Shown: in pieces, positions 6,068 through 54,686 of the stretch
How positions within the stretch are numbered: position 1 is the stretch's first letter
Layout of the letters: each line of letters begins with the position of its first letter
NCBI GenBank assembly: GCA_963749235.1
Contig: CAVVLV010000001.1
Location: 1,147,039-1,211,038 of the forward strand
Length of the DNA stretch: 64,000 bases
Direction: 5' to 3'
Source of the DNA: an uncultured Thermoplasmata archaeon
GTDB lineage: Archaea; Thermoplasmatota; Thermoplasmata; Lutacidiplasmatales; UBA184
Notes under the pieces: generated by a model
Seen by the model: only the letters and a program-made list of their open reading frames with translations
Told to the model about the DNA's origin: nothing
The model's database searches: none
Program-made: the position numbers and the translations under genes

Positions 6068-7198
6068 ATGTCGAACGTGACCCTCTACAGCGTCTCCTTC
6101 GACCTCGTCAACTGGGTGCTGCGTGGCATCGGTTCGGTGCTCCCGCACCCGCTCAACGCCTGGATCACGAACGGCGACCTGATCGTCGGACTCGCCGTCC
6201 TCCTGTTCGGCGTCATCCTGCTCGGCGCGAGCATGGTCAACACGATCATGCTGATCTGGTGGGAACGTAAGCTGCTCGGCCGCTTCATGGACCGTCGGGG
6301 GGCGATGCATGTCGGGTACGCGGGCCTGCTCCAGAACTTCGCCGACGGGATCAAGCTGTTCGCGAAGAACACGATCAAGCCGAAGGAGGCGGACTGGCTC
6401 GGCTTCTTCAGCGGGCCGACCGCCTACATGGTGACCTCGCTCGTCCTCTTCGGGATCCTTCCGATCTCGTCCGGCTGGAACTCGGGGGTCCTTCCCCTGA
6501 GCCTCCTTCTCGCGCTCGCGATCTTCTCGTTCGCGCCGTTGTTCATCTTCGTCAGCGCCTGGTCGAGCAACAACAAGTACTCCCTGATGGGCGGGATGCG
6601 CTCCGCGGCCCAGATGATCGCCTACGAGGTACCGATCCTCCTCGCGGTCGTGGCGGTCATCGTCGTCTCGGGAAGCTTCGACCTGACAACGATCGTCTAC
6701 GAGCAACAGAACTACTGGTTCTGGGGGCCGCTGTTCCTGGCGCTCGTCGTGTTCGTCGCGGGCATGCTCGCCGAGATGGAACGCATCCCCTTCGACCTTC
6801 CCGAGGCGGAGGCCGAGCTGGTGGAAGGTTGGAACACCGAGTACGGAGGGATGCTCTTTGCCTACTTCATGCTCGCCGACTACCTACGGGCGCTCGTCGG
6901 AAGCATCCTGGTCGTCCTCCTCTTCCTCGGCGGGTGGACGATGCCGAGCTGGGTCCCGTCGGCGGCGACCTCGTTCCCCCTCGCCGGGATCGTTTGGTTC
7001 ATGGTGAAGACCTACCTCGTCTTCGGCCTGTTCGTCTGGATCCGGGCCTCGTTACCCCGGGTCCGGACCGATCAGCTCCTTCGGGTTGGCTGGAACCGCA
7101 TGATCCCCCTGAGCCTCGCTGCCGTCTTCCTCGCGGCGGCCCTCGTGGTGGTGAAGTGCGTCCCGGTCTTCGGTTGCCTTCCTTCTCCAGGAGTCTAG
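6068..7198 (+). CDS. nuoH: NADH-quinone oxidoreductase subunit H
   Basis: 376-aa polytopic membrane protein with WWERKLLGRFMDRRG, AQMIAYEVP and EAEAELVEGWNTEYGG. Confidence 0.92.
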   Translation: MSNVTLYSVSFDLVNWVLRGIGSVLPHPLNAWITNGDLIVGLAVLLFGVILLGASMVNTIMLIWWERKLLGRFMDRRGAMHVGYAGLLQNFADGIKLFAKNTIKPKEADWLGFFSGPTAYMVTSLVLFGILPISSGWNSGVLPLSLLLALAIFSFAPLFIFVSAWSSNNKYSLMGGMRSAAQMIAYEVPILLAVVAVIVVSGSFDLTTIVYEQQNYWFWGPLFLALVVFVAGMLAEMERIPFDLPEAEAELVEGWNTEYGGMLFAYFMLADYLRALVGSILVVLLFLGGWTMPSWVPSAATSFPLAGIVWFMVKTYLVFGLFVWIRASLPRVRTDQLLRVGWNRMIPLSLAAVFLAAALVVVKCVPVFGCLPSPGV

Positions 7199-44721: not shown

Positions 44722-45321
44722 TTGCGGCGGGCCTTCGCGAAGGACCACTTCCGCGTGGTCGGCGTAGATGACGGGGCGTTCACTCGAGAGGACACGTGGG
44801 CGCCGGTCGCTGCGGTCGCCGTGGCCGCCCCGGACCGGGTGGAGGCGATGCGCGTCGGGCGGGTCCGGGTCGACGGGCGGGGGGCCGCGACCGAGATCGT
44901 GCGGCTGGTCCGCGCCACCGGCGGGCTCGAGGGGTTGCGCGCGGTCCTCCTCGACGGAGCGGTCGTCGGGGGGTTCAACGTGGTCGACCTGGACGCAGTC
45001 CACGCCGCCTTGGGCGTGCCGATCGTCGCCGTCACACGTCACCGCCCCGACTTTCCGGGGATCCTAGCCGCGCTGCGCAAATGGTTCCCGCGCGACGCGG
45101 CGGCCCGCTGGAAGCTCCTGCGTGCCCATCGGCTCTACGCACTTCCTTTCGCCGACCTCCCGCTCCTCGTCGCGACCGTGGGTTGCGGACGCGCGGACGC
45201 GGCCGTGCTCGTCCGTAAGACCACCGTGCGGGGACACGTCCCCGAGCCGATCCGCCTGGCCCACCTCGTTGCCTCGGCTGGACCGACCCCGGGCCCGTCG
45301 CCCCGAAAGAAGAATCCTTAA
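44722..45321 (+). CDS. DUF99 / UPF0215 family protein (endonuclease-V-like fold)
   Basis: TTG at 44722. FRVVGVDDGAF...VDGRGATEIV...AVLLDGAVVGGFNVVD...PIVAVTRHRPD matches the DUF99 pattern. Confidence 0.65.
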   Translation: MRRAFAKDHFRVVGVDDGAFTREDTWAPVAAVAVAAPDRVEAMRVGRVRVDGRGAATEIVRLVRATGGLEGLRAVLLDGAVVGGFNVVDLDAVHAALGVPIVAVTRHRPDFPGILAALRKWFPRDAAARWKLLRAHRLYALPFADLPLLVATVGCGRADAAVLVRKTTVRGHVPEPIRLAHLVASAGPTPGPSPRKKNP

Positions 45322-45346
45322 GGGGAACGGCCCCCGTCGGAGGTGC

Positions 45347-45453
45347 GGGCCTGTAGCTTAGCCCGGACGAAGCACTGGCCTTCTAAGCCAGCTAACTCGG
45401 GTTCAAAGGTCCGGGGCGAGCACCGCCCCGGACGGAGATTCCCGACAGGCCCG
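45347..45453 (+). tRNA. tRNA-Arg (anticodon UCU) with a 32-nt intron in the T-loop (45408-45439)
   Basis: Hand-folded cloverleaf. Acceptor GGGCCUG/CAGGCCC; U8; D arm GCUU-AGCCCGGACG-AAGC; anticodon arm CUGGC-CUUCUAA-GCCAG; variable loop CUAAC; T stem UCGGG/CCCGA; T-loop UUCAAA[intron]U; discriminator G. Confidence 0.85.
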
Positions 45454-48988: not shown

Positions 48989-49774
48989 TTATAGTACGCT
49001 CTGGAACGCGCGCTCGAGGCGGCTCGCGTCCTTGAGATCGAGCGACCTCGGGTCGAAGGAAACGATGAGGGCCGAGCCGGTGTCGTGGACCTGGGTGACG
49101 AGCCAGTTGACGAACCGGAGGGTCAGCTCGAGGGAGTGCTCCGTGGCGAGGAATTCGAGGGCGTCGACGTAGACGAGCGCGCCGCCGGCCAGCTCCGTCG
49201 GACCGCGGAGTCGTCCGCTGATCTCCCCCGGCGTCGGCAGGGTCGACGCGAGCCCTTCGCCCGCCCCGCTCGGGGAGATCACGACCAGCCGCTCTGCGCC
49301 CAGGTCGGGGATCGTCGGCGGATGGAGGGAGACGACGGCGACCCGGGGGAAGTCCGCCACGTTCGTCCGCAGGATCTCGAGCGCGCGCGCGGGTCGCTCC
49401 TCCCGGACGAGGACGCTCCGGCCCGCGCCGAGGTGGATCGCCGCGGGTGGAGGGGTCGGACCCACCGGACTGAGCCAGGGCCGGGCCGAGGTCGGCGGCC
49501 GGAGCAACGCCCCCCATGCCGGGCGCCGCGGGGGCGCGAGGAGGCTGCGACGTTTCAAATCGACCTCCTCCGAGAGGCGGGCGAGGCGGCTTTCCGCGAG
49601 CATGCGGAGCTCTTGAGTCGTGTGGCCGCGCGAGGCGTGTCCCAAGACCTCCCGCAACGCGCTCCGGACCCCTTCCTCGTACCCCGTCGCGTAGGCCCGG
49701 ACGTATTCCTCGTCGGTCGGGTCCTCCTCCGGCGGTCGGGAAGGAGCGCCGTCCCGGCGCGGCGAGTCGTTCAC
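48989..49774 (-). CDS. DUF835 domain protein
   Basis: GTG at 49774 overlaps the DUF35 stop (GTGA). The C-terminal ~170 aa fit the DUF835 pattern (SVLVREERPARALEIL...ALVYVDALEFLATEHSLELTLRFVNWL...ALIVSFDPRSLDLKDASRLERAF). The remaining 538 codons of the 799-aa ORF are antisense to the thiolase gene. Confidence 0.6.
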   Translation of the reverse strand: MNDSPRRDGAPSRPPEEDPTDEEYVRAYATGYEEGVRSALREVLGHASRGHTTQELRMLAESRLARLSEEVDLKRRSLLAPPRRPAWGALLRPPTSARPWLSPVGPTPPPAAIHLGAGRSVLVREERPARALEILRTNVADFPRVAVVSLHPPTIPDLGAERLVVISPSGAGEGLASTLPTPGEISGRLRGPTELAGGALVYVDALEFLATEHSLELTLRFVNWLVTQVHDTGSALIVSFDPRSLDLKDASRLERAFQSVL

Positions 49775-50259
49775 GCCGGGGCCCGGTCCGGCTCCGGGGT
49801 ACCGGACGGGACGGGCGGCCGGGTCCCCCGGCGGCCCGGCACAGGATCGGTGTCGACGGCGGGGGCGAACTTGTATCCGTAATGGATGACGCCCGCCTTC
49901 CCCTCCTCCCGGAGCTTTCGGAAGGTCGCACGGACCCGAAGCCCGATCGCGACCTCGGGGGGGTTCACGTCCACGACCTGGCCGGTGAGCATCGGTCCCT
50001 CGACGGTCTTCACGAGGGCGACCACGTACGGGACCTGCATCTCGAATCCTTCGGCCGCCTCGTGGACGACCGTGAAGGAGTACACGGTCCCATCGCCGCT
50101 CAACTGGAACGGCGCCATCTTCTCGATCGTCTGCCGGTGGTGCGGGCAGGTGGGGCAGACCGAGCGCGGGGGGAAATAGACCGTCTCGCAGACCCCGCAT
50201 CGGGAGCCACCCAGATTGTAGCGTCGGGGCGTCTCGCGCCAGAAACGTGCGACCGACAT
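49771..50259 (-). CDS. DUF35 OB-fold/zinc-ribbon protein (scaffold of the archaeal thiolase-HMG-CoA synthase complex)
   Basis: 162-aa. CGVCETVYFPPRSVCPTC zinc ribbon, then an OB-fold segment GTVYSFTVVH. Confidence 0.8.
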   Translation of the reverse strand: MSVARFWRETPRRYNLGGSRCGVCETVYFPPRSVCPTCPHHRQTIEKMAPFQLSGDGTVYSFTVVHEAAEGFEMQVPYVVALVKTVEGPMLTGQVVDVNPPEVAIGLRVRATFRKLREEGKAGVIHYGYKFAPAVDTDPVPGRRGTRPPVPSGTPEPDRAPA

Positions 50260-50268
50260 GGGACCCTC

Positions 50269-51438
50269 CTACGCCGCCCTCTCCAGGAGGTGGACCACGC
50301 TCGTCGCACCGGTGCCGCCGACGTCGTGGGTGAGCCCGAGCGTGGCGTCCTTCACCTGCCGGTCTTTTGCCTCGCCCCGGAGCTGCTTCACGATCTCCAC
50401 GACCTGGGCGACCCCGACTGCACCGAACGGACGTCCTTGGGCCTTCATCCCCCCGGACGGGTTGAGCGTGAGCGGGCCCGCGAAGCCGAACCGTCCCGAG
50501 GCGAATTCCGGGCCGGCCTCCCCCTTCTCGACGAATCCCAGGTCCTCGAGCGCGACCAGCGCGCTGATCGTGTAGGCATCGTTGATCTCGGCGACGCGCA
50601 CGTCGGCCGGGGCGCGGCGGGCCCGTTCGAAGGCGTGCCGCGCCGCGACCACCGTCGACTCGACCGTGGTCACGCTCGCCCGGTGCTGGAGCGCCATCGT
50701 GTCGCAGGCGACCTCGCTCGCGGCGATGCGGATCGGGATGTCCGTGTGTCCGCGGGCCATGTCGAGGGGACCTAGGACGACCGCCGCCGCTCCGTCCGAG
50801 AGCGGGGCGCAGTCGAGCATCCCGAGCGGTTCCGCGACCTCGCCCGCCCCCATCACCTGTTCCAGCGTCAGCTGGTTCCGGTAGTGGGCGAGCGGGTTCT
50901 TCGCGGCCATCGCGTGGTCGTGGACGGCCACCCGGGCGAGCTGCTCGCGCGTTGTGCCGAAGTCGTGCATGTGCCGCTGGGCCACGAGGCCCCATAGGGC
51001 GGGGAGCGTCGCACCGAAGACGACCTCCCACTCGTGGTCGGCGGTGGAACTCGTGATCCGGTTCGCCGTTTCGTCGGGGACGTCCGTCATCTTCTCGGCC
51101 CCGCCCACGACGACAAAGTCGTACTGGCCGCTCGCGACCGCCAGGTATCCCGCATGCAGGGCGAGGGCACCGGAAGCGCCGCCCCCTTCCACCCGGACCG
51201 CGGGAAGGTGCCGACCGGCGAGGCCGGCGTAGTCGAGGATCAGCGGCGCGATGTGCTCCTGGTCGAGGAGAGAGCCCGAGGCCATGTTCCCGAGGAACAA
51301 TCCCCCCAGGTCGGCCGACGAGAGCTTCGCGTCGACGAGCGCCTGCAGGCCGGCTTCGATCCCGATCTCCCGGAAGGAGCGGTCCCACAGCTCGCCGAAC
51401 TTCGTCTGACCGACGCCGAGCACGGCCACGTCGCGCAT
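50269..51438 (-). CDS. acetyl-CoA C-acetyltransferase (archaeal thiolase)
   Basis: 389-aa: MRDVAVLGVGQTKFGE..., GGGASGA, and C-terminal GLTHDVGGTG. Confidence 0.88.
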   Translation of the reverse strand: MRDVAVLGVGQTKFGELWDRSFREIGIEAGLQALVDAKLSSADLGGLFLGNMASGSLLDQEHIAPLILDYAGLAGRHLPAVRVEGGGASGALALHAGYLAVASGQYDFVVVGGAEKMTDVPDETANRITSSTADHEWEVVFGATLPALWGLVAQRHMHDFGTTREQLARVAVHDHAMAAKNPLAHYRNQLTLEQVMGAGEVAEPLGMLDCAPLSDGAAAVVLGPLDMARGHTDIPIRIAASEVACDTMALQHRASVTTVESTVVAARHAFERARRAPADVRVAEINDAYTISALVALEDLGFVEKGEAGPEFASGRFGFAGPLTLNPSGGMKAQGRPFGAVGVAQVVEIVKQLRGEAKDRQVKDATLGLTHDVGGTGATSVVHLLERAA

Positions 51439-51440
51439 GG

Positions 51441-52493
51441 CTACTCCCCTCCCATGTGGATCTTGCCCCGGAACTTCGCGTAGACCGCGTAGGGGATCTC
51501 GATCCCCGCGTCCAGGTACTCTTGCACCGGGCGTCCGAACGAACGGTCGTAGTTCGCGATCTCGTCCATGACCTCGAAGTCGAAGGCGTCGGAACCGGCG
51601 CCCGAGCCGTAGCCGACCATCAGGATCCGTTCGCCGGGTTGGGCCCGGTCGAGCACGTTCGCGAGGCCGATCAAGGCGGCTCCCGAGTAAGTGTTGCCGA
51701 TGTACGGGGTTACGAGGCCGTACTTCATCTGGGCCTCCGTGAAGCCGAGCTGCTTACCCACCCGCTGCGGGAACTTTCCGTTCGGCTGGTGGAAGACCAC
51801 GTGGGCGTAGTCCTTCGGGGTCGTGCCCGACGCCGCGAACATCCGCTTCGCGCATTCGGTGACGTGACGGAAGTACGCAGGCTCCCCCGTGAACCGGCCG
51901 CCGTGGCTGGGATACTTCTGTCCCTCCCTCCGCCAGAAATCAGGGGTATCGGTCGTGTAGGAGAGCGTGCCGAGCACGCGGGCGATGACCCGCTCGCGGC
52001 CGATGATCATGGCGGCTCCGCCGGCGCTCGCCGAGTACTCGAGCGCGTCCCCGGGGGCGCCTTGCGACGTGTCCGTCCCGATCGCGACGCCGTAGCGGAT
52101 CATCCCCGAGCCCGCGAGGCCGAGGCAGGTTTGGATCGCCGCGGTGCCCGCCTTGCAGGCGAACTCGAAGTCCGCCGCGGTGAGGTTCGGGGTCGCTCCC
52201 ACCGCCGACGCGACCACCGTCGCGGTCGGCTTCACGGCGTAGGGATGGGATTCGGAGCCGACGTAGATCGCTCCGATCTGCTGCGGGTCGATCCCGCCCC
52301 GCACGAGCGCGACCCGGAGGGCTTCGGTCGAGATCGTGATGGTGTCCTCGTCGGGGGCGGGGACGCTCTTCCGGATGACATTGAGTCCCTGCCCCATCCC
52401 CTCCCCGTCGACGCCCCAGACCCGCCCGATCTCGGCGGGCGTGATCCGGTATCTCGGCACATACGCTCCGTAGCTCACGATCCCTGCGTCCAT
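51441..52493 (-). CDS. hydroxymethylglutaryl-CoA synthase
   Basis: 350-aa: [14 protein letters not shown]...PDEDTITIS...FACKAGT...[10 protein letters not shown]. Confidence 0.88.
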
Positions 52494-52511
52494 GGTTCCC
52501 TCCGGTTTCCT

Positions 52512-53189
52512 CTAGAGTTCCTCGAGCCGTTCGAGCACCGCCGGCGCGGCCAGCGCGGTGGTCAGGAGGGGAATGTTCTCGACCTCGGAGAGACGGACCG
52601 CGAGCGGGTCGATCCGGCCCGGTGCGGCAAAGACGACCGCGGCCGGCTTCAACGGATGCGCGCGGATCGCCACCATCGGGGAGCGCCCGTACTTCACGTT
52701 GGAAAAGATGAGCGCCCGCTGGGTCGTCCAGCCGTAGACCTCGACGAACCGGGACGCATCGATCGAAAGGATCGCCCGCGGCGCGTCCAGGATCGTGAAC
52801 CCGTGGATGTCGCGGTGCAGGTCGACCCGGCTCACCGGCTTCGCGTCCAGCCGGTCGGCGAGGGCCCGGAGCGGGATCGCGACCGTGAATTCCCGCATCC
52901 CGAGGATGCCGTCCGAATGAGGACGGACCCCGAGGCGCTGGCCGACCCGGCTCCCGTTCTGGCTGTCCAGGGCCAAGAGGCTGTCCACGTACCGACGGAT
53001 GAACCCGGCGCCCGGGCTCACCCGGCGTTCCGATTCGTAGTCCGAGATCACGGAGGGAACCGTCGCGAGCTGCTTCGCGAGGTCGCGCTGGGAGATCCCG
53101 AAATCCTCCCTCCACTTCCGGAGCGTGCGACCCGGGTGAGGAGAGAGAACCACCTCCCCTGCGATCTTCTCGCGGATGTCGGCCTCCAC
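52512..53189 (-). CDS. XRE-type helix-turn-helix transcriptional regulator (archaeal COG1395-like)
   Basis: 225-aa, GTG start. LRKWREDFGISQRDLAKQLATVPSVISDYESERR is a clear HTH_3 motif. The C-terminal ~140-aa domain is of unknown function. Confidence 0.65.
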   Translation of the reverse strand: MEADIREKIAGEVVLSPHPGRTLRKWREDFGISQRDLAKQLATVPSVISDYESERRVSPGAGFIRRYVDSLLALDSQNGSRVGQRLGVRPHSDGILGMREFTVAIPLRALADRLDAKPVSRVDLHRDIHGFTILDAPRAILSIDASRFVEVYGWTTQRALIFSNVKYGRSPMVAIRAHPLKPAAVVFAAPGRIDPLAVRLSEVENIPLLTTALAAPAVLERLEEL

Positions 53190-53213: not shown

Positions 53214-53219
53214 TATAAA
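53214..53219 (-). promoter_or_regulatory. TATA box (minus-strand CTTTATAC) for the HTH regulator / mevalonate operon
   Basis: Centred ~27 nt upstream of the GTG at 53189, suggesting a leaderless transcript. Confidence 0.45.
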
Positions 53220-53283
53220 GGGCTAGGGTTCGTGTCGGTGGGTGCGCTCGACACATGCCGACATTGACCTCACCCGGACGGAG

Positions 53284-53388
53284 TGGACCGGGCGAGATTC
53301 TCCGGGCGGGGTCCATGCCGGCCCCACCCCTTTGAACTCGCGACCTCTACCTTGCCAAGGTAGCGATCTTCCGCTGATCTACCGGCCC
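53284..53388 (-). tRNA. tRNA-Ala (anticodon GGC) with a 33-nt intron in the T-loop (53298-53330)
   Basis: Hand-folded cloverleaf. Acceptor GGGCCGG/CCGGUCC with the G3:U70 Ala identity pair; D arm GAUC-AGCGGAA-GAUC; anticodon arm CUACC-UUGGCAA-GGUAG; variable loop AGGUC; T stem GCGAG/CUCGC; T-loop UUCAAA[intron]U; discriminator A. Confidence 0.88.
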
Positions 53389-53414
53389 ACGAGGCCCGCC
53401 GACGCCCGGCGCGG

Positions 53415-53422
53415 GATAAAAT
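53415..53422 (-). promoter_or_regulatory. TATA box (minus-strand ATTTTATC) for tRNA-Ala
   Basis: Lies 27-34 nt upstream of the mature tRNA 5' end at 53388. Confidence 0.55.
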
Positions 53423-53514
53423 CTTCTCCCGGTGGACCGCCCCTCGCCAGACCCCGCCGACCGAACGACCCTGCCGGCCAAAGGGTTAAGGGTCCCGCCC
53501 GATTTCGCCGCACG

Positions 53515-53871
53515 ATGGCCGAAGGATCCTCCGGGGAACCGATCGACCTGATCGTGAAGAGCACTCGGGACCTCCTCCGCCCGGAGGAGCTCGTCCGCGA
53601 GGCGACCCGGGACATCGTCAAGGAGGAGATCCGCCACCACCTGGAGAAGACCCTCCGCGAGGACCCGAAGCTCGCCCAGGACCTGAAGGACGCCGTCCGG
53701 GACCTCCTCGAGGCGCGGGCCCGCGAGTACGCCGCCATCGTGCGCGTAGGAGCGGCCACCGCGCGGCTCGGCCTCTCCGCCCTCCCGCCGGATGTCCGCC
53801 GCGCGCTCACGGAGGATATCGTGAACCTCCTCTCGAAGGAGATCGGCCACATCGTGGAGAGGTCGCTCTGA
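53515..53871 (+). CDS. hypothetical small helical protein
   Basis: 118-aa from ATG 53515 (MAEGSSGEPIDLIVKSTRDLL...). Charged, helix-forming composition. The upstream part of ORF 53242 is antisense to tRNA-Ala and therefore not coding. Confidence 0.5.
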   Translation: MAEGSSGEPIDLIVKSTRDLLRPEELVREATRDIVKEEIRHHLEKTLREDPKLAQDLKDAVRDLLEARAREYAAIVRVGAATARLGLSALPPDVRRALTEDIVNLLSKEIGHIVERSL

Positions 53872-53879
53872 CGAACCAG

Positions 53880-54686
53880 ATGGCCCCGGACCAGGTCCGG
53901 ATCTACGAGATCAAGCGCGTCGACGTCGAGGGCGCCATCGTGATCGACGGGTTCCCGTCGGTCGGACTCGTCAGCTCGATCGTGGCGAACTACCTCATCG
54001 ACACGCTCGAGATGGAACAAATCGGGATCGTCGAGTCCCCGGCCTTCCCCACCGTCTCGCTGGTGCGAAACGGCCGACCCCAACACCCGGTCCGGATCTA
54101 TGCCGGCCATCCCCCCGCCGACCGGGCGGGGCACGGCGCCGACAAGATCGTCGCCTTCGTGTCCGAATTCCATCCGGCGCCTGCGATCATCCACCCGCTC
54201 GCCATCGCGATCCTGGATTGGGTGCAGGAGCAGCGGTGTTCCCTCCTGGTCTCCCCCGAGGGGCTCGTGGTCGAGGCCGACCCCCACCGCGCGAAGGGAC
54301 GCGGACCGCGCTTGAACGACGTGAAGGTCTACGGGGTCGCCAGCACCCGCAAGGCCCGCGAGCTCTACATCGAACCGAACATGATCCCGTTCGCGGAGGG
54401 GGTCATCACCGGCATCGCCGGGGTCCTCCTGAACGAGGGCCGCCGTAGGGGCTTCGACGTGCTCACCTTCCTCGCGGAAGCGCAGGCGGACTACCCGGAT
54501 GCGCGCGCGGCGGCGAAGGTGATCGAAACGATCAACTCGATCCTCTTGCGGACGCCCTTGGACGCGGTCCCGCTCTACGCCGAGGCCGAGCGGATCGAGC
54601 AGCAGCTCTTGACGATCCAGCGGCACGCGGCCGACCGGTCCCCGAAGGAGCCTTCGGGGTCGTCTTCCCCGCCGATGTACCGCTGA
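53880..54686 (+). CDS. PAC2-family proteasome assembly chaperone
   Basis: 268-aa: AIVIDGFPSVGLVSSIVANYLI...GVITGIAGVLLNEG. Confidence 0.7.
   Translation: MAPDQVRIYEIKRVDVEGAIVIDGFPSVGLVSSIVANYLIDTLEMEQIGIVESPAFPTVSLVRNGRPQHPVRIYAGHPPADRAGHGADKIVAFVSEFHPAPAIIHPLAIAILDWVQEQRCSLLVSPEGLVVEADPHRAKGRGPRLNDVKVYGVASTRKARELYIEPNMIPFAEGVITGIAGVLLNEGRRRGFDVLTFLAEAQADYPDARAAAKVIETINSILLRTPLDAVPLYAEAERIEQQLLTIQRHAADRSPKEPSGSSSPPMYR

Follow-up and report, generated by a model that had tools for sequence, protein, structure and literature searches.

A tRNA-Ala(GGC) gene of Ca. Lutacidiplasmatales with a probable archaeal intron in the T-loop

The stretch of DNA analyzed here (64,000 nucleotides, referred to as the window) carries on its minus strand a tRNA-Ala(GGC) gene in which the T-loop is interrupted by 33 nucleotides. 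The locus raises the question of whether the insert has destroyed the gene, or whether it is an intron that is removed to yield a functional tRNA. Based on comparisons of the window with its relatives, we conclude that the locus is very probably a functional tRNA-Ala(GGC) gene with a protein-spliced archaeal intron between T-loop positions 59 and 60.

Anatomy, detection and promoter of the gene

The gene and its main parts are the following:

53284-53388, minus strand: whole pre-tRNA-Ala(GGC) gene, 105 nt, with G1 at 53388 and the discriminator A73 at 53284.
53331-53388, minus strand: 5' exon, 58 nt (tRNA positions 1-59), based on the ARAGORN-supported spliced product and on the relatives.
53298-53330, minus strand: candidate intron, 33 nt, GGGGUGGGGCCGGCAUGGACCCCGCCCGGAGAA, at position 59/60; its removal restores tRNA-Ala.
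53284-53297, minus strand: 3' exon, 14 nt, consisting of U60, CUCGC (53296-53292), CCGGUCC and A73.
53415-53430, minus strand: promoter-like element, a BRE-like GGGAGAAGA (53430-53422) followed by a TATA-like TTTTAT (53421-53416), based on the composition of 166 loci.

Read from 53388 to 53284, the successive segments are GGGCCGG, UA, GAUC, AGCGGAA, GAUC, G, CUACC, UUGGCAA, GGUAG, AGGUC, GCGAG, UUCAAA, the 33 inserted nucleotides, U, CUCGC, CCGGUCC and A. The 5' exon thus contains the acceptor 5' strand, the D arm, the anticodon arm (GGC), the variable region, the T stem 5' strand (53341-53337) and the first six bases of the T-loop, UUCAAA (53336-53331), which are separated from the following U by the insert. 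An earlier note on this DNA had described the D arm, the anticodon arm and the T stem as perfect, with the alanine pair G3:U70 in the acceptor stem, and inspection of the minus strand confirmed the description: the acceptor stem GGGCCGG/CCGGUCC includes G3:U70, and the D stem GAUC/GAUC, the anticodon stem CUACC/GGUAG with the loop UUGGCAA and the T stem GCGAG/CUCGC pair perfectly, as does the acceptor stem. The insert is the exact reverse complement of 53298-53330 and follows UUCAAA, as the note had proposed. The tRNA-Ala identity elements were all found, namely the anticodon GGC, A73 and, in 79/79 sequences of the alignment described below, G3:U70. The CCA end is not encoded.

Deletion of the 33 nucleotides from 53330 to 53298 gave a perfect 72-nt cloverleaf. 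The detection by ARAGORN suggested in the earlier note was only partly successful, since the spliced 72-nt sequence was called as tRNA-Ala(ggc) but the unspliced DNA of the locus gave no call. The Rfam tRNA model scored 24.8 bits on the 5' part of the gene (53333-53388), which is below the threshold of 29 bits. In genomes of this order, which is abundant in soil and peat, annotation with ARAGORN or filtering by the Rfam gathering threshold would give the impression that tRNA-Ala(GGC), which reads the most used codon, is absent. This codon, GCC, accounted for 182 of 3,185 codons in ten window genes. Folding of the 105-nt precursor yielded -55.7 kcal/mol (z = -4.23), and none of 200 shuffled sequences folded as well. 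Searches for non-canonical introns of this type are performed by default in tRNAscan-SE 2 (PMC8450103).

Other types of interrupted genes were considered and rejected. A split or permuted tRNA gene does not agree with exons that are contiguous, collinear and 33 nt apart, and a self-splicing group I or II intron does not agree with an insert of 27-36 nt that forms a single hairpin in the T-loop. The group I and II introns of tRNA genes are hundreds of nucleotides long, have a conserved catalytic core and are usually located in the anticodon loop. No match to the Rfam intron families was found in the window. A C/D-box guide RNA within the intron was also rejected, as a crude check for box motifs matched only one of 167 introns.

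The TATA box that the earlier note had placed at 53415-53422 lies within a conserved A/T-rich element. The TATA-like ATTTTATC at 53422-53415 corresponds to positions -34 to -27 from the 5' end of tRNA-Ala, and falls on a stretch rich in A/T at -33 to -28 that is conserved in 166 non-redundant related loci, the sequence around it being otherwise 80-90% G+C. The A+T fraction of these loci is 0.86-0.97 at -31 to -29, as compared to a background of 0.1-0.3, and positions -38 to -35 are A/G-rich. Between -38 and -28, the loci display a run of mostly purines that leads into TTTAT, CTTAT or GTTAAA; in the window the BRE-like sequence is likewise purine-rich, with TTTTAT at -33 to -28. As a separate observation, the two positions next to the gene (53389-53390, minus strand) carry G(-2) in 96% and U(-1) in 99% of the 166 loci, with the rest of the leader being unconserved.

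Conservation of the insert and structure of the junction

Two sets of related loci were compared. The first consists of 79 genome loci, which are the syntenic GTDB loci with enough upstream DNA, and the second of 202 loci, comprising the 79 genome loci plus metagenome contigs among the matches listed. In 79/79 syntenic genome loci, the insert follows UUCAAA and tRNA-Ala(GGC) is located upstream of a gene for an HTH regulator. Within the larger set, all 202 loci with the gene have an insert at the identical site (for the metagenome part, among the matches listed), with 167 distinct introns of 27-36 nt among these genome loci and listed metagenome matches. Among the 79 genome loci, the introns are all different (79 sequences of 28-36 nt), whereas the exons come in no more than six variants; those of 67 loci are identical to the exons of the window. 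In three sequences, the acceptor pair C5-G68 has been replaced by U5-A68, a compensatory change, and all stems of tRNA-Ala pair in 100% of the sequences in the 79-sequence alignment. The identity of random pairs of sequences was 0.996 for the exons, approximately 0.46 for the intron arms and 0.31-0.46 for the flanks. Judging from these alignments, the exons are under strong purifying selection, while the intron arms and flanks drift. The view of the earlier note that the gene does not look decayed is supported by this exon identity and by the presence of the insert in the 79 syntenic and 202 total loci.

A search for the intron-less 44-nt junction of the tRNA-Ala 3' half in 241 million metagenome records gave no matches, and at least 120 metagenome matches were obtained for the same exons with an insert of 10-40 nt. 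When IMG/VR contigs were searched for a mobile-element attachment site, the T-arm and 3' end of tRNA-Ala was absent in both its spliced and its unspliced form.

The splice position is ambiguous in the window sequence alone, where 57/58, 58/59 and 59/60 are indistinguishable and yield the same product because of a run of A residues. Among the relatives, the last base of the intron varies (C in 61, A in 42, U in 41 and G in 19 distinct introns), and therefore 59/60 is the only site that gives an invariant mature T-loop. We describe the intron by the notation i1 - hairpin - X1X2X3X4 - b1b2, which in the window corresponds to the following elements:

53304-53329, minus strand: inner helix h', a GC-rich hairpin of intron nucleotides 2-27, based on the fold and on compensatory changes.
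53300-53303, minus strand: intron tail GGAG (X1-X4), based on its invariance in distinct introns, on the register test and on pair counts.
53332-53330, minus strand: putative 5' bulge of A58, A59 and intron nucleotide 1, based on the free variation of intron nucleotide 1.
53297-53299, minus strand: putative 3' bulge of the last two intron bases (AA) and U60, based on free variation among the relatives.

In the central helix H, the bases X4, X3 and X2 pair with U54, U55 and C56 (53336-53334), and X1 (G) is located opposite A57 (53333) in the tRNA-Ala of the window. Each of 163 distinct introns has G at X2 and purines at X3 and X4, a pattern that matches the need to pair with C56, U55 and U54; X1 is G in 157 of the 163. 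The three pairs of H (U54, U55 and C56 with R, R and G) hold in 100%, 100% and 100% of the sequences, and in 79/79 sequences of the alignment. The single bases i1, b1 and b2 vary freely, which the neighboring paired bases do not. The outer helix is the T stem, paired in 100% of the sequences. For h', 90.7% of the cells in the 79-sequence alignment were paired, and compensatory double changes were observed in eight of the eight scored pairs. Over the whole structure, 94.7% of the cells were paired and none of 500 shuffles of the 79-sequence alignment reached the observed value for any of five measures. Pairing fell to 32-54% when the partners were displaced by 1-3 columns. The covariation-backed structure includes the GC-rich hairpin mentioned in the earlier note, which had omitted the key feature, a bulge-helix-bulge (BHB) of the 5' half of the T-loop with the GGAR tail. 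The alignments fit a BHB motif at 59/60, formed by the T-loop 5' half and the 3' tail of the intron (GGAR), and it is this type of arrangement that archaeal EndA recognizes. With standard BHB geometry, the predicted cleavage sites are between 53331 and 53330 on the 5' side and between 53298 and 53297 on the 3' side.

A BHB in the strict sense has four standard base pairs between its two 3-nt bulges (PMC3239211, PMC5829648). The fourth central pair of tRNA-Ala has A57 opposite G in 78 of 79 sequences, and the motif is therefore not a strict hBHBh'. The pair is standard only in rare variants with U at X1 and in a divergent tRNA-Arg from locus L120 (G57, X1 = C). The motif has the features of a relaxed BHB, with the splice sites in bulges on opposite strands, the flanking helices h and h' and a short central helix. 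Its structure is conserved over its sequence, as seen from the compensatory changes and from the low identity of the arms (about 0.46 versus 0.996 for the exons). RNAfold does not favor the BHB: the cloverleaf-plus-BHB structure has -47.3 kcal/mol versus -55.7 kcal/mol for the MFE structure, and the H register is part of the MFE structure in only one of 159 sequences. Since the register is not predicted by RNAfold, the structure rests on comparative evidence.

Alternative readings and proposed splicing pathway

The comparative data support the view that the insert behaves as a spliceable intron, and four other explanations were weighed against this view. A decayed pseudogene, destroyed by the insertion and replaced in its function by another copy, would agree with the failure of both ARAGORN and the Rfam gathering threshold to detect tRNA-Ala, and a sequence-divergent, intact paralogue may be located elsewhere in the genome. 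This reading does not account for exons that are 99.6% identical where the flanks are 31-46% identical, for a compensated change in the acceptor stem, for the conserved promoter or for a spliceable structure that is kept in 167 insert variants. It is also at odds with the lack of any intron-less copy of the tRNA-Ala 3' half among 241 million metagenome records, and with GCC being the most used codon. Decay is thus exceedingly improbable, and an assignment as a tRNA pseudogene was rejected based on the exon identity of 0.996, the 100% paired stems and the conserved promoter. A chance resemblance, in which a GC-rich region mimics two tRNA halves, has nothing in its favor except that spurious helices and spurious ARAGORN calls are common at high G+C; we give it no credence, since all four arms of the cloverleaf are perfect, the alanine identity elements are in place, and the gene recurs in a syntenic, intergenic position in 79 species and on at least 120 metagenome contigs.

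The two remaining explanations accept that the gene is real. If the insert were retained, the product would be a mature tRNA or tRNA-like molecule with an extra T-arm hairpin, and thermodynamic folding does yield a stable extended T arm. Every elongator tRNA requires the U54-A58 and G18/G19-U55/C56 contacts, and these cannot be made by the unspliced T-loop. Moreover, the features that are conserved are those needed for recognition by an endonuclease (pairing of G-R-R with C56-U55-U54, and two 3-nt bulges that are left free), whereas the sequence, loop and length (27-36 nt) of the hairpin drift freely; retention is for these reasons highly improbable. Alternatively, splicing could proceed in a register shifted by one base (U54-X3, U55-X2, C56-X1), with three base pairs and two 4-nt bulges, a relaxed motif for which an endonuclease of broad specificity would be required. 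The shifted pairs are present in 100%, 100% and 96% of the 167 introns and account for the G at X1 in 96%, but it is the unshifted register alone that fits every sequence (100/100/100%). The unshifted register also accounts for the purine that X4 invariably has, and it gives a full 4-bp helix both with U at X1 (opposite A57) and in the L120 tRNA-Arg (G57, X1 = C). Its cuts are, moreover, those that give the invariant mature T-loop, and we consider the shifted register very unlikely.

For the favored reading, a protein-spliced intron at 59/60, the mechanism is in all likelihood that of standard archaeal tRNA splicing. In the following scheme, we infer which enzymes act, where exactly they cleave and in what order the steps take place. 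The BRE/TATA element near -30 would direct transcription from a start a few nucleotides upstream of G1. The precursor would be unable to form a T-loop, and U54-U55-C56(-A57) would pair instead with the 3' tail of the intron (G-G-A-R). The resulting central helix is expected to stack between the T stem, as the outer helix, and the intron hairpin, as the inner helix, so as to display a 3-nt bulge on either strand (A58-A59-i1 and b1-b2-U60). The splicing endonuclease EndA would make one cut per bulge, the first following A59 and the other preceding U60, and an RtcB-type ligase would join the exons and release the intron, which is probably circularized. RNase P and RNase Z would trim the ends and the CCA enzyme would add CCA. 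Only after splicing would the T-loop fold, dock on the D-loop and gain its T-loop modifications.

In Euryarchaeota, of which Thermoplasmata are a part, EndA is mostly of the alpha4 or alpha'2 type, which requires strict motifs (PMC3239211). A regular expression for the EndA catalytic motif gave no match in the six-frame translation of the window. Similarly, tblastn with five EndA sequences (that of M. jannaschii, which matched PDB 1a79, and four taken from the alignments of that same comparison) gave no match when run against the window, some 15 kb of additional flanking DNA and the related loci (1.6 Mb). It is conceivable, although we regard it as rather doubtful, that the entire Ca. Lutacidiplasmatales has 59/60 introns as a fixed trait, present in many or most tRNA genes and kept with A57-G, which would imply that an endonuclease of broadened specificity has evolved or been acquired. 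If so, the lineage would represent a further independent case of co-evolution between tRNA genes and EndA outside TACK and DPANN.

A companion tRNA gene, known systems and the host lineage

The window contains a second interrupted tRNA gene:

45347-45453, plus strand: tRNA-Arg(TCT) with a 32-nt intron (45408-45439) at position 59/60; ARAGORN calls the spliced product tRNA-Arg(tct).

The two introns were said in the earlier note to share their position, and both are indeed found at 59/60. The junction of tRNA-Arg reads UUCAAA, G, hairpin, GGAG, AU and U, with the predicted cuts after UUCAAA and before the last U, and has the same anatomy as in tRNA-Ala. For the unspliced gene, ARAGORN reported a mis-folded 80-nt gene (45345-45424), and Rfam covered only 45347-45405. 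Orthologues were identified at 23 loci with 22 distinct introns of the same anatomy, and the covariation values observed for the tRNA-Arg intron were not reached by any of 500 shuffles. Upstream of tRNA-Arg, the Endo_dU (PF01949) gene (44755-45321) ends in a stop codon that is overlapped by a TATA-like CCTTAA (45316-45321). The divergent tRNA-Arg(TCT) mentioned above (L120:8543-8651, minus strand, metagenome contig Ga0080006_1136662) has G57 together with C at X1, and this compensating C in the intron tail results in a full 4-bp central helix. It encodes CCA, unlike the tRNA genes of the window. Transposition of an intron between the Ala and Arg genes was rejected, as within a single genome the two introns agree only at the constrained positions. 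With respect to codon usage in the ten window genes, AGA is the rarest codon (2/3185) and GCC the commonest (182/3185), and the two tRNAs with interrupted T-loops thus serve opposite extremes of codon demand.

Additional tRNA genes were searched for using ARAGORN, ARAGORN with introns, Rfam at E <= 10 and our own scan for T-loop introns. The search covered the window, roughly 15 kb of DNA flanking it and 1.6 Mb from related loci, and gave no real tRNA beyond Ala(GGC) and Arg(TCT); both sampled tRNA genes of the lineage (2/2) are thus interrupted in the T-loop. In DNA with a GC content of 57-75%, ARAGORN, and especially its -i option, calls tRNAs within protein-coding sequences such as the thiolase and M20 peptidase genes. 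The calls at L027:1784-1867, L071:7650-7723 and L031/L038:~6626-6784 were rejected as false, since the inspected sequence was coding DNA, and the Rfam tRNA model had no match at the ARAGORN-called positions in L071, L154, L198 and L204.

T-loop introns at 59/60 are an established archaeal category, to which the lineage adds a member without revealing a new mechanism. Position 59/60 is a listed site of non-canonical introns in Archaea, for example in the Thermoproteales (PMC4090602). In Ca. Micrarchaeum acidiphilum ARMAN-2, 59/60 introns are present in pre-tRNA-Cys(GCA) and pre-tRNA-Pro(GGG) (Fujishima et al. 2011, PMC3239211), and the intron of the Cys precursor was cleaved in vitro by the ARMAN-2 EndA (PMC3239211). 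These introns resemble the one in tRNA-Ala in their T-loop position, short length and BHB-type junction, with the T stem as the outer helix. However, the ARMAN-2 Cys intron has 13 nt and a relaxed hBH motif in which one bulge is absent, whereas tRNA-Ala has both bulges and an inner hairpin, with one non-standard central pair. The hosts also differ, ARMAN-2 being a DPANN archaeon with an epsilon2 EndA and the tRNA-Ala host belonging to a Thermoplasmata order. The non-canonical introns of Crenarchaeota (Marck & Grosjean 2003; Sugahara et al. 2008; Fujishima et al. 2010; reviewed in PMC4090602) are comparable in that the Thermoproteales and other Crenarchaeota have BHB-flanked introns outside 37/38, including at 59/60, with a conserved structure rather than sequence. 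Their hosts have an (alpha-beta)2 EndA with a specific loop and often several introns per gene, and the introns are near-identical across tRNAs, suggesting transposition, whereas those of Ala and Arg share only constrained positions. Canonical introns at 37/38 occur in Euryarchaeota, for example in tRNA-Trp and tRNA-Met. The euryarchaeal introns have in common with the present one the inferred use of EndA and ligase and the succession of 3-nt bulge, central helix and 3-nt bulge, but the tRNA-Ala intron is located in the T-loop instead of the anticodon loop and has a conserved A-G mismatch in the central helix. Introns in the T arm of otherwise normal tRNA genes are also found in nucleomorphs and in Cyanidioschyzon merolae (PMC4090602), although these are eukaryotic and processed by other enzyme complexes, those of nucleomorphs being 3-24 nt long (PMC4090602).

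As far as the aligned sequences tell, the differences from the known cases are the Thermoplasmata host, the fixation of the intron in every relative examined and the conserved A57-G mismatch. Non-canonical introns would thereby extend to a Thermoplasmata order thought to carry endonucleases of strict specificity. The more than 160 variants of a single 59/60 intron also represent a natural mutagenesis series, which distinguishes constrained positions of the junction (the G-R-R tail and the G opposite A57) from free ones.

The host is an uncultured soil archaeon of the Thermoplasmata order Ca. Lutacidiplasmatales (TMEG, GTDB UBA184). The G+C content of the window is about 69%, and GCA_049585655.1 contains a contig with an identical copy of the region. 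When GTDB species genomes were scanned, 80 syntenic loci were obtained, including UBA184, UBA61 and AcS/SubAcS soil MAGs. The latter MAGs define Ca. Lutacidiplasmatales, or the Terrestrial Miscellaneous Euryarchaeota Group, with about 69% GC and genomes of about 2.1 Mb; introns are not mentioned in the one genomic description of the group that was found (PMC9287336).

The earlier note had dismissed an open reading frame on the opposite strand (53242-53871) as spurious. Its 5' extension across the tRNA is indeed an artefact, but the last 357 nt (53515-53871, plus strand) represent a conserved gene for 118/119 amino acids (118 in the window) without a Pfam match, of which the 209-aa frame is a 5'-extended reading. 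The gene is divergent from tRNA-Ala and always located just upstream of a gene for a PAC2 proteasome chaperone (53880-54686). Immediately downstream of tRNA-Ala, on the same strand, is the gene for the 225-aa HTH regulator (52512-53189), whose nearest relatives are all from MAGs named 'Thermoplasmata archaeon'. A TTTATA (53214-53219, minus strand) is located about 27 nt upstream of its GTG start (53189), which suggests a leaderless transcript that begins right after the tRNA-Ala gene; in the window there is no oligo-T terminator between tRNA-Ala and this box. The regulator is followed by genes for HMG-CoA synthase, thiolase and a DUF35/OB-fold protein (49771-53189 in total, minus strand). The latter three form the archaeal mevalonate-entry trio, and the order of regulator and trio is kept in the four distinct relatives with gene tables.
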